Below are positions 5,826 through 6,264 of a stretch of DNA of 43,817 bases, piece by piece. Numbering within the stretch: position 1 is the first letter of the stretch; every line of letters starts with the position of its first letter. The notes below the pieces were generated by a model. That model had not been told where the DNA came from, ran no database searches, and saw only the letters and a list, made by a program, of their open reading frames with translations. The DNA comes from a virus (Duplodnaviria; Heunggongvirae; Uroviricota; Caudoviricetes). The position numbers were made by a program, and so were the translations under genes. The stretch lies in IMG/VR virus record IMGVR_UViG_2558860161_000008, positions 1 to 43,817 of that record, one strand, 5' to 3'.

Positions 5826-6071
5826 ATGACTTTTGATGAAAAAGAACTTGATAATGCAATTAATAAAATCATCGTAACGTCGCTCTTTTCCTGTCTCAGC
5901 GACACTCAGCAGAAACAGTTCTACGAATCGGCTTTCAACATGATCGAGCGTTGTTGTTTCTGCGATGCCGACGAGTTACCTGAAAAAATCAGGAAACAGT
6001 TGGCTGATGCTCTTCGAGTGCGACTTTCTGACCAATTTTCTGAAATGTGCTCTCCGAATTTGGACAAATAG
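5826..6071 (+). CDS. Hypothetical protein (81 aa) in the immunity region
   Basis: ATG preceded by AAGGAAA at 7-nt spacing; rightward, opposite to the surrounding early-left genes. Confidence 0.4.
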   Translation: MTFDEKELDNAINKIIVTSLFSCLSDTQQKQFYESAFNMIERCCFCDADELPEKIRKQLADALRVRLSDQFSEMCSPNLDK

Positions 6072-6264
6072 AAAAAGGCCATTTCCATTCAGGGTCTGAT
6101 GGAAATACTTCAGCCTGTTCCAAAGCACGGCGTAAAGAGAATACACCTCCAGCCATAATCTGATGTTTCCCATTGGTCCAGCTATCGCCGCTCTGATCTA
6201 CAGGAGCGGCTATGTCGTATGACCAAACGACTTCACCACTATTGTTTAAAATCTGGACTTTCAT
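5989..6264 (-). CDS. Hypothetical protein (91 aa), first gene downstream of pL
   Basis: ATG at 6262-6264 with GGAGG 11-12 nt upstream; 3' end overlaps the convergent 5826..6071 ORF by about 80 nt; not N-like. Confidence 0.4.
   Translation of the reverse strand: MKVQILNNSGEVVWSYDIAAPVDQSGDSWTNGKHQIMAGGVFSLRRALEQAEVFPSDPEWKWPFSICPNSESTFQKIGQKVALEEHQPTVS

Follow-up and report, generated by a model that had tools for sequence, protein, structure and literature searches.

p81 and p91, a conserved pair of convergent, overlapping small genes next to pL of an SfV/e14-like prophage: a possible excludon-like switch

In phages P22 and λ and in the Rac prophage, the accessory gene sieB is found close to where the pL operon begins, but it is encoded on the other strand and converges on the early-left genes. 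Ranade and Poteete are said to have found, in 1993, that P22 sieB is expressed in the lysogen and is controlled by antisense RNA from pL (the sieB/esc/sas system). In coliphages 186 and P2, face-to-face promoters direct convergent lytic and lysogenic transcription, which gives mutual interference. Excludons, in turn, consist of convergent genes that overlap at their 3′ ends, have no terminator between them, include one tightly switched promoter and are expressed in a mutually exclusive manner. Here, we analyzed two small open reading frames (ORFs), p81 and p91, in the 43,817-nucleotide (nt) sequence of the tailed virus record IMGVR_UViG_2558860161_000008 (positions 1 to 43,817, hereafter the window), which represents an SfV/e14-like lambdoid prophage. 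The arrangement of p81 relative to pL is like that of sieB, and the pair is like an excludon at the gene level. We tentatively favor, with a confidence somewhat short of even, the view that p81 and p91 form an excludon-like switch, in which p81 would be expressed in the lysogen and p91 upon induction. The coordinates of all features are collected in Table 1.

Both ORFs are genuine protein-coding genes, judged by their conservation. Over its whole length, each matches a PHROG of unknown function: residues 1–81 of p81 align with profile positions 1–81 of the 81 of phrog_3311 (E = 1.2e-55), and residues 1–91 of p91 align with positions 8–98 of the 98 of phrog_3195 (E = 6.8e-63), a group that includes orf33 of phage SfV, which covers the same DNA as p91. 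Diverged orthologues of both genes are present in Salmonella, Klebsiella, Yersinia and further hosts, and in all lineages examined both frames are open and under purifying selection. In pairwise Nei–Gojobori comparisons with the Salmonella, Klebsiella and other orthologues, the ratio of nonsynonymous to synonymous substitution rates (dN/dS) ranged from 0.11 to 0.35 for p81 and from 0.09 to 0.33 for p91, with synonymous sites near saturation. About two-thirds of each ORF is free of overlap, and in these parts the third codon positions are relaxed in the frame of the gene itself, the fractions of invariant columns by codon position being 0.38/0.50/0.11 for p81 and 0.37/0.52/0.12 for p91. In a population sample of 90 loci, which comprised 43 haplotypes, p91 was intact in all haplotypes (43/43) and p81 in all but one, so that both were intact in 42/43. 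The sole break was a stop at codon 50 of p81 (E50*) in one genome with an intact p91; no haplotype showed the converse. The Shine–Dalgarno sequences of both genes are conserved, and that of p81, AAGGAA, is located at 5814–5819, 6–8 nt 5′ of the ATG. An earlier note on this DNA, made from the letters alone, had placed the two ORFs correctly as to coordinates, orientation and convergence, and had rightly credited p81 with a good ribosome-binding site; the overlap that it put at about 80 nt is 83 nt in the ORF listing. A private substitution was also observed in p91 of the window: codon 40 (6146) encodes Gly (GGT), beside the invariant MAG motif, whereas Val40 is present in 83/83 close relatives.

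The two genes always co-occur, and their pairing far exceeds what chance would give: they were found together in E. coli/Shigella, Salmonella, Klebsiella and Yersinia prophages and in two remoter lineages. The span from one ATG to the other is exactly 439 nt in the four named groups and in the lineage with only ~46% p81 identity, and 436 nt in the remotest one (~30% protein identity). The p91 protein of the ~46% lineage has an N-terminal extension of 82 residues. Extensions of 65–90 residues were seen at the N-termini of some remote p91 homologues (P0063, P0064, P0066; locus L102, 4001–4579), and in these cases, too, p81 lies antisense and the 439-nt geometry is preserved.

Conservation extends to the overlap. 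Its length is 74, 83, 137, 140, 161, 173 or 176 nt depending on the lineage, and no lineage lacks it, a possibility that the earlier note had raised. The core of the overlap, 6010–6053, encodes conserved residues of both proteins (ALR.RL...E in p81 and ..G..VALEE in p91), and none of its codon positions is relaxed (invariant fractions of 0.43/0.40/0.40). Within 6007–6024, 17 of 18 nt are identical in four lineages, the coding sequences of which are ~68% identical overall. These patterns indicate that the core overlap is true dual coding. The C-terminal ends of the proteins are the least conserved: p91 ends at residue 91, 93, 108 or 122, and p81 at residue 76–82. The 122-residue forms of p91 have a Cys/His-rich tail, absent from p91 of the window, which looks like an antisense image of the RCC(Y/F)C region of p81.

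The pair moves as a unit. Comparison with other prophages revealed mosaic homology breakpoints at ~5756 on the left and at 6266/6285 on the right, and the cassette was found beside at least six unrelated immunity regions. Of 5426 complete E. coli genomes, 404 (~7%) contain it at a cassette coverage of at least 80%, and among isolated phages it was found only in SfV, vB_EcoM-720R4 and SKA5. No relative was detected in two scans of a one-genome-per-species contig collection. This distribution suggests that p81 and p91 travel horizontally, as a single inseparable cassette, among the lambdoid and Rac-like prophages of Enterobacterales.

The position of p91 would link it to the lytic state. The 16-bp palindrome TGTAGGATATCCAACA lies over the −10 hexamers of both early promoters (the copy at 6384–6399 overlaps that of pL and a third one, at 7198–7213, that of pR), which identifies the leftward promoter as a repressor-controlled pL; the palindrome gives 6 strand-wise matches at 3 palindromic sites, with both strands scored, versus 0.24 expected by chance. 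As p91 lies directly 3′ of this cI-operator-controlled promoter, its transcription is expected only after the removal of repressor, upon induction or infection. The earlier note had called p91 the first gene after pL, which is right as regards intact genes, although a 40-residue remnant of a zinc-finger gene (6239..6361) precedes it.

In contrast to p91, p81 points against pL and has its own Shine–Dalgarno sequence and a conserved upstream element. Going by its orientation, a promoter-like motif and analogy, p81 may be expressed in the lysogen, where it would be transcribed from its own candidate promoter, TGGTATCCT, with a start at ~5800. The firing of pL would then lead to convergent transcription and to complete antisense pairing across p81, shutting p81 down, while in the lysogen the p81 transcript would cover and silence leaky p91/pL transcripts. 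Neither a terminator/promoter scan nor folding revealed a terminator between p81 and p91, and the only terminator-like structure 3′ of p81 on the plus strand, at 6452–6477, is beyond pL. The most speculative part of the proposal concerns the proteins: p81 might serve the lysogen as an accessory factor for exclusion, defence or host modulation, and p91 might be an early-lytic factor, possibly one counteracting p81.

The motif that could serve as a p81 promoter is part of the non-coding element at 5758–5795, which is almost invariant in lineages whose genes are ~68% identical and which also occurs upstream of e14 ymfI. The 3′ end of this element together with ATCCT forms TGGTATCCT, which resembles an extended −10 sequence and implies a 26-nt leader. 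The element contains two interleaved 5-bp helices, GCCTG/CAGGC (5758–62 with 5777–81) and ACCAC/GTGGT (5770–74 with 5785–89), which together could form a pseudoknot. Compensatory changes affect three of the ten pairs and come from L008 and the Yersinia loci; over the 9 variants, pairing holds in 98.9% of cells, and population polymorphisms in the element fall in the loops. However, the variant sample is small, and ~3 such double helices are expected by chance per shuffled window. Read from the minus strand, the two helices are arranged as in a classical H-type pseudoknot whose third loop is A-rich. One G-U pair, which is A-C on the other strand, weakly favors the plus strand for the structure. 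The minimum-free-energy fold of the element was not significant, Rfam gave no match for it, and no second, putR-like copy was found downstream of pR. We regard the pseudoknot-capable element as a lead rather than a finding. It was also observed, apart from the cassette border, in e14, SfIV, PhiR29 and mEp460.

Several observations weigh against a switch. The candidate p81 promoter is a motif only, with a poor −35, and the TG of its extended −10 is absent in L008; moreover, the covariation in the helices of the upstream element fits an RNA structure better than a promoter. The Shine–Dalgarno sequence of p91 in the window, GGAGG at 6281..6277 on the minus strand, lies 12 nt from the ATG, which is a suboptimal spacing (other lineages have GAGG(A) at 6 nt). 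Co-inheritance is no proof of functional coupling, because the overlap alone enforces it. Neither protein is like any defence, exclusion, toxin–antitoxin or regulator family. Finally, the RNA of ymfI, the e14 gene in the position of p81, was also elevated ~2 log2-fold late in the SOS response (PMC11002266), and therefore did not behave as strict mutual exclusion predicts.

The e14 genes in question, ymfI on the plus strand and ymfJ on the minus strand, occupy the same slot, between the 'ymfH' block and a cI-type repressor gene, with the same upstream element. They converge like p81 and p91, with an overlap of 63 nt, but encode larger proteins (113 and 102 amino acids (aa)). Both ymfI–ymfJ and sieB–ydaF of Rac were listed as convergent excludons on the basis of K-12 RNA-seq (PMC12288877), and ymfJ, which is in the p91 position, was induced at a late stage of the SOS response (~4.8 log2-fold), along with other e14 genes under repressor control (PMC11002266). 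A remote homology of p81 and p91 to YmfI and YmfJ was considered and rejected, as the hhalign probability was below 1% in all four combinations. A Yersinia prophage carries a YmfJ-like pair in tandem with p81/p91, one member of which is 86 aa long and 46% identical to YmfJ over 41 residues; the two pairs are therefore distinct modules.

Other occupants of the slot show that it is a hypervariable accessory site, often with a gene pointing against pL (ymfI in e14, SfIV_36, an ORF in PhiR29, sieB in Rac). In SfIV, a 144-aa plus-strand and a 73-aa minus-strand gene converge with an overlap of 29 nt, and in Rac, sieB on the plus strand converges on ydaF/ydaG on the minus strand. The PhiR29 slot contains only a plus-strand ORF, and that of mEp460 only a minus-strand HTH_17 gene. 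The earlier note had held that this position in lambdoid phages often carries superinfection-exclusion or abortive-infection genes; this is a reasonable statement, but none of the occupants that we checked (SfIV_36, the PhiR29 ORF, YmfI/YmfJ and the mEp460 gene) matched a known defence family, the sole match being that of HTH_17 in mEp460. For p81 and p91 themselves, such a role is speculative and found no support in this analysis. Further convergent overlapping pairs of small genes were seen in the early-left regions of L094–L096 (3336–3826), L099 (SfIV; 2958–3585) and L008 (4572–5050). Larger lysogen-side accessory genes lie between the repressor gene and pL in the related prophages L009 (3389–4279, plus strand) and L003 (2552–3706); one encodes a BRCT-domain protein with a weak PADLOC match (PDC-S48, 2e-7) and the other a 384-aa HSDR_N protein, and both are candidate defence genes in the position of λ rexAB.

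The products of p81 and p91 are predicted to be small, acidic, soluble proteins, with isoelectric points (pI) of 4.56 and 4.95 and grand averages of hydropathy of −0.40 and −0.43, respectively. The motif RCC(Y/F)C..D is conserved in p81, with C43, C44, C46 and D49 invariant in most lineages, although the remotest one lacks the Cys triad; p91 has conserved Trp residues. An AlphaFold2 model of p81 consists of three helices (5–22, 26–44 and 53–75) and has a predicted local distance difference test score (pLDDT) of 64; in Foldseek it gave no match with E < 0.5 in PDB or BFVD. The p91 model, a β-hairpin with two helices, is unreliable (pLDDT of 45) and too poor for a fold search. Searches of both proteins against Pfam, NCBIfam and PDB sequence profiles returned only noise, and a PADLOC-DB v2 scan gave only noise-level matches (E ≥ 0.035). 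A hidden Markov model of p91 matched 21 of 1.84 billion representative proteins; the 17 significant matches are members of the same family or their fragments, and the remaining 4 are weak and concern a repeated motif (residues 2–29) in large proteins. Every database name is 'hypothetical protein', and a literature search, which covered neither the SfV genome paper nor the e14 analysis paper, found no paper that discusses SfV orf33 or the pair. Thus, homology and structure prediction, which the earlier note had recommended, yielded homologues and the two PHROGs, but no known family or fold, and the statement of that note that neither ORF resembles N, Rex or SieB was borne out, as there was no Pfam, NCBIfam or PADLOC match.

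How far the likeness to the known systems extends can now be specified. The speculated p81/p91 logic is like that of P22 sieB/esc/sas, but the proteins are unrelated. Of the SieB-type features, p81 shows the orientation, the Shine–Dalgarno sequence and the TGGTATCCT motif. SieB, however, is hydrophobic and ~160–190 aa long, in contrast to p81, which lacks a Pfam match; no Pfam or PHROG match of p81 or p91 points to SieB, and BLASTP against Rac SieB gave only E > 50. The internal-start logic of P22 Esc is not evident in p81/p91, and the Rac sieB/ydaF overlap, contrary to that of p81/p91, is 4 nt long and not dual-coding. The 186 promoters, with 62 bp between them, serve the repressor and lytic operons themselves, whereas the putative p81 and p91 promoters are ~575 bp apart and flank accessory genes. 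Neither protein gave a family match to RexA or RexB, and p81/p91 are on the far side of pL rather than between cI and pL. As compared with the excludons treated by ExcludonFinder (PMC12288877), the p81/p91 overlap comprises not only untranslated regions but also conserved coding sequence of both proteins. Judged by the sequences compared, this genuine dual-coding overlap and the nucleotide-exact conserved geometry are what is unusual in p81/p91, which add a well-conserved member to the convergent pairs of accessory genes already known from the left edge of lambdoid immunity regions.

The alternative to a switch that survives best, though we consider it rather unlikely, is that p81 and p91 are small accessory or early genes, independent of each other, that lie tail to tail, with an overlap resulting from genome compaction, with no regulatory or functional coupling and with p81 possibly an early or constitutive gene that has its own role. 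Such neighbors would be co-inherited simply because they overlap, as recombination could not part them; both ORFs are least conserved toward their C-termini, the 122-aa p91 forms have tails resembling an antisense shadow of the p81 RCCYC region, and small unrelated genes abound in lambdoid left arms. Against this, the 439-nt geometry is maintained without an indel down to ~46% protein identity, and it is the conserved domains of both proteins, beyond their tails, that share 6010–6053. Furthermore, unrelated convergent overlapping pairs recur in the slot, which suggests that the arrangement itself is selected.

Less probable still, and distinctly unlikely in our estimate, is a two-protein effector/antidote system, either toxin–antitoxin-like or a defence factor with self-immunity, in which p81, made in the lysogen, would be the likeliest effector, harming superinfecting phage or the cell, and p91, the first product from pL, would bind and neutralize it to allow prophage growth after induction. 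Strict co-inheritance and the fact that cassettes are always swapped as pairs would fit such a system, the low pLDDT values of both models are compatible with folding on a partner, and self-immunity has a precedent in this region in SieB/Esc/sas of P22. However, neither PADLOC nor the toxin–antitoxin families gave a match (there are no toxin–antitoxin Pfam domains), and the convergent orientation is atypical of protein toxin–antitoxin pairs, those of type II being co-directional operons. The p81 Cys triad, in addition, is gone in the remotest lineage. The natural E50* haplotype with intact p91, and the lack of its converse, are uninformative on toxicity.

It is very unlikely that this N-less phage uses p91 as its early regulator (an anti-repressor, or else an antiterminator or processivity factor needed to overcome the terminator at 5525–5572), with p81 and its antisense transcript acting as a brake. 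Like λ N and HK022 Nun, p91 is the first gene after pL, a strong terminator separates it from yfdP-yfdQ-yfdR...xis/int, no N homologue was found in the ORFs examined, and the pL–p91 leaders of four other lineages contain conserved hairpins. The likeness to N and Nun is one of position only: those proteins are basic, have an arginine-rich motif and act at nut sites, whereas p91 is acidic, lacks such a motif and has no likeness to antiterminator or DNA/RNA-binding families. The pL-to-p91 leader of the window contains neither boxA/boxB-like elements nor the conserved hairpins, and in some prophages the ClpX zinc-finger gene precedes p91.

Finally, there is next to no chance that only one ORF is a gene and the other a chance frame on the opposite strand: although annotations are split (p91 alone in SfV and by the Prokaryotic Genome Annotation Pipeline (PGAP), p81 alone plus a spurious ORF in the RAST-type annotations of 720R4 and SKA5) and databases contain frameshifted variants of both, this explanation is already contradicted by the PHROG matches, the codon periodicity of each ORF in its own frame and its dN/dS of 0.1–0.35 outside the overlap, the intact haplotypes, the conservation of both Shine–Dalgarno sequences, and the two frames that stay open across lineages with saturated synonymous divergence, which together reject one ORF as a shadow of the other.

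The surroundings of the cassette provide hints as to its origin. A non-coding block of ~430 nt lies 3′ of the pair on the pL strand, and window positions 5399–5794 are 91% identical to e14 'ymfH'. The block contains a structured-RNA-like part (Table 1) related to the prophage small RNA STnc100 and, according to bioRxiv 10.64898/2026.05.13.724894, to PasD. Further sub-threshold STnc100 matches are located beside the cassette or the slot in L097 (3770–3914), L098 (3712–3938), L008 (5189–5376) and e14 (L012; 5193–5414), all matches scoring 29–41 bits versus the Rfam gathering score of 47. The block is labelled 'frameshifted hypothetical protein' by PGAP and ymfH in K-12, and is fused to yfdP in SfIV; these coding-sequence labels are probably mistaken and the block an RNA gene. 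Beyond its terminator lie yfdP, yfdQ and yfdR. A 20-nt direct repeat brackets the cassette, with the left copy at the 5′ end of the STnc100-like block and the right copy directly 3′ of the pL −10. This suggests that the ancestral pL leader was an STnc100-like RNA and that the cassette and the zinc-finger gene were inserted or exchanged by recombination at the repeat.

On the other side of p91, the zinc-finger gene that is a remnant in the window is intact at the same place in other prophages (L009, L010), where it encodes 67 aa according to PGAP and matches Pfam zf-C4_ClpX (1.3e-10). The remnant retains only the first CxxC and overlaps the p91 start by 26 nt; it may provide translational coupling to p91, whose Shine–Dalgarno sequence is distant from the ATG here. 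In other lineages, too, a terminator and a promoter are located upstream of p91. The terminator between cI and pL in the window ends the cI transcript on the minus strand, and the SfV annotation has a terminator at the equivalent site; another SfV 'terminator' annotation, which maps to window 5806–5838, was set aside as unreliable, as there is no hairpin there. The pL-to-p91 leaders of L003, L008, L098 and L102 share a conserved motif, CCCCATCAAC..AATCACYGCACAGTGATT..AAAACGTTCCGCC..CCCGGCG.TAAGGG, with two hairpins. This motif with CCCCATCAAC is common to prophages with differing immunity regions, is absent from the window, and might act in cis at the RNA level, as a nut-like or other site.

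Table 1. Features of the p81/p91 locus and its surroundings (window coordinates).
Feature	Position	Strand	Basis and remarks
p81 gene	5826..6071	+	81 aa, ATG start; coordinates include stop; ORF listing
p91 gene	5989..6264	-	91 aa, ATG start; = SfV orf33; ORF listing
p81/p91 3′-3′ overlap	5989-6071	both	83 nt; genes convergent
Non-coding element GCCTGTCTTTTCACCACTTCAGGCTCGGTGGTATCCTT	5758..5795	either strand	near-invariant, directly upstream of p81
pL, early-left promoter TTGACA-18-TACATT	6382..6411	-	promoter scan
OL operators	6383..6435		16-bp palindrome TGTAGGATATCCAACA at 6384-6399, variant at 6419-6434; motif count, inverted repeat
pR	7186..7215	+	hexamers and spacing identical to pL, facing outward; promoter scan
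cI repressor gene, LexA/S24-type	6498..7151	-	Pfam Peptidase_S24 4e-25, HTH_3 1e-15
cro-like gene	7247..7444	+	ORF listing
Bidirectional intrinsic terminator A7-CCGGGG-ATA-CCCCGG-T4	6452..6477	both	fold z -4.3 (+), -3.6 (-)
40-aa N-terminal remnant of ClpX-type C4 zinc-finger gene	6239..6361	-	between pL and p91; ORF listing
STnc100/PasD-like structured RNA block	5523..5746	-	Rfam RF02076, 40.9 bits (gathering score 47), E=8e-7
Strong intrinsic terminator ending the STnc100-like block	hairpin 5572..5532, U-run 5529..5525	-	fold z -4.0
20-nt direct repeat CGCATTCACCACAAC(G/T)CTAA	5702-5721 and 6357-6376		19/20 identical, spacing 655 nt; repeat search

A wider generalization, which we consider unlikely, would be that, in lambdoid and Rac-like prophages, the slot to the left of the immunity region holds a diverse class of convergent, coding-overlapping, 'state-coupled' two-gene modules, in which a lysogen-phase and a pL-driven partner are inseparable and yet not co-expressible. 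The p81/p91 pair would be a widespread module of this class; p81 would then be a new small anti-phage or host-modulating effector, p91 its release factor, and the pseudoknot-capable element a shared cis-acting RNA signal.

Besides SfV, a serotype-converting phage of Shigella, and prophages of Salmonella, Klebsiella and Yersinia, ~7% of complete E. coli genomes carry the cassette. The proteins are annotated as no more than 'hypothetical', and annotation pipelines routinely drop one gene of the pair because the genes overlap. The pair thus offers a clean, testable bacterial example of antisense-overlapping protein genes and a candidate switch that would make an accessory function depend on whether the prophage is in its lysogenic or its lytic state. 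It also points to a recombination-prone slot with several unrelated pairs of the same design. If exclusion or defence is not its function, the pair would be an ordinary, though well-conserved, moron-like cassette; if p81 is an exclusion or defence factor and p91 its antidote, the two would represent a new, very small system of prophage-encoded immunity.

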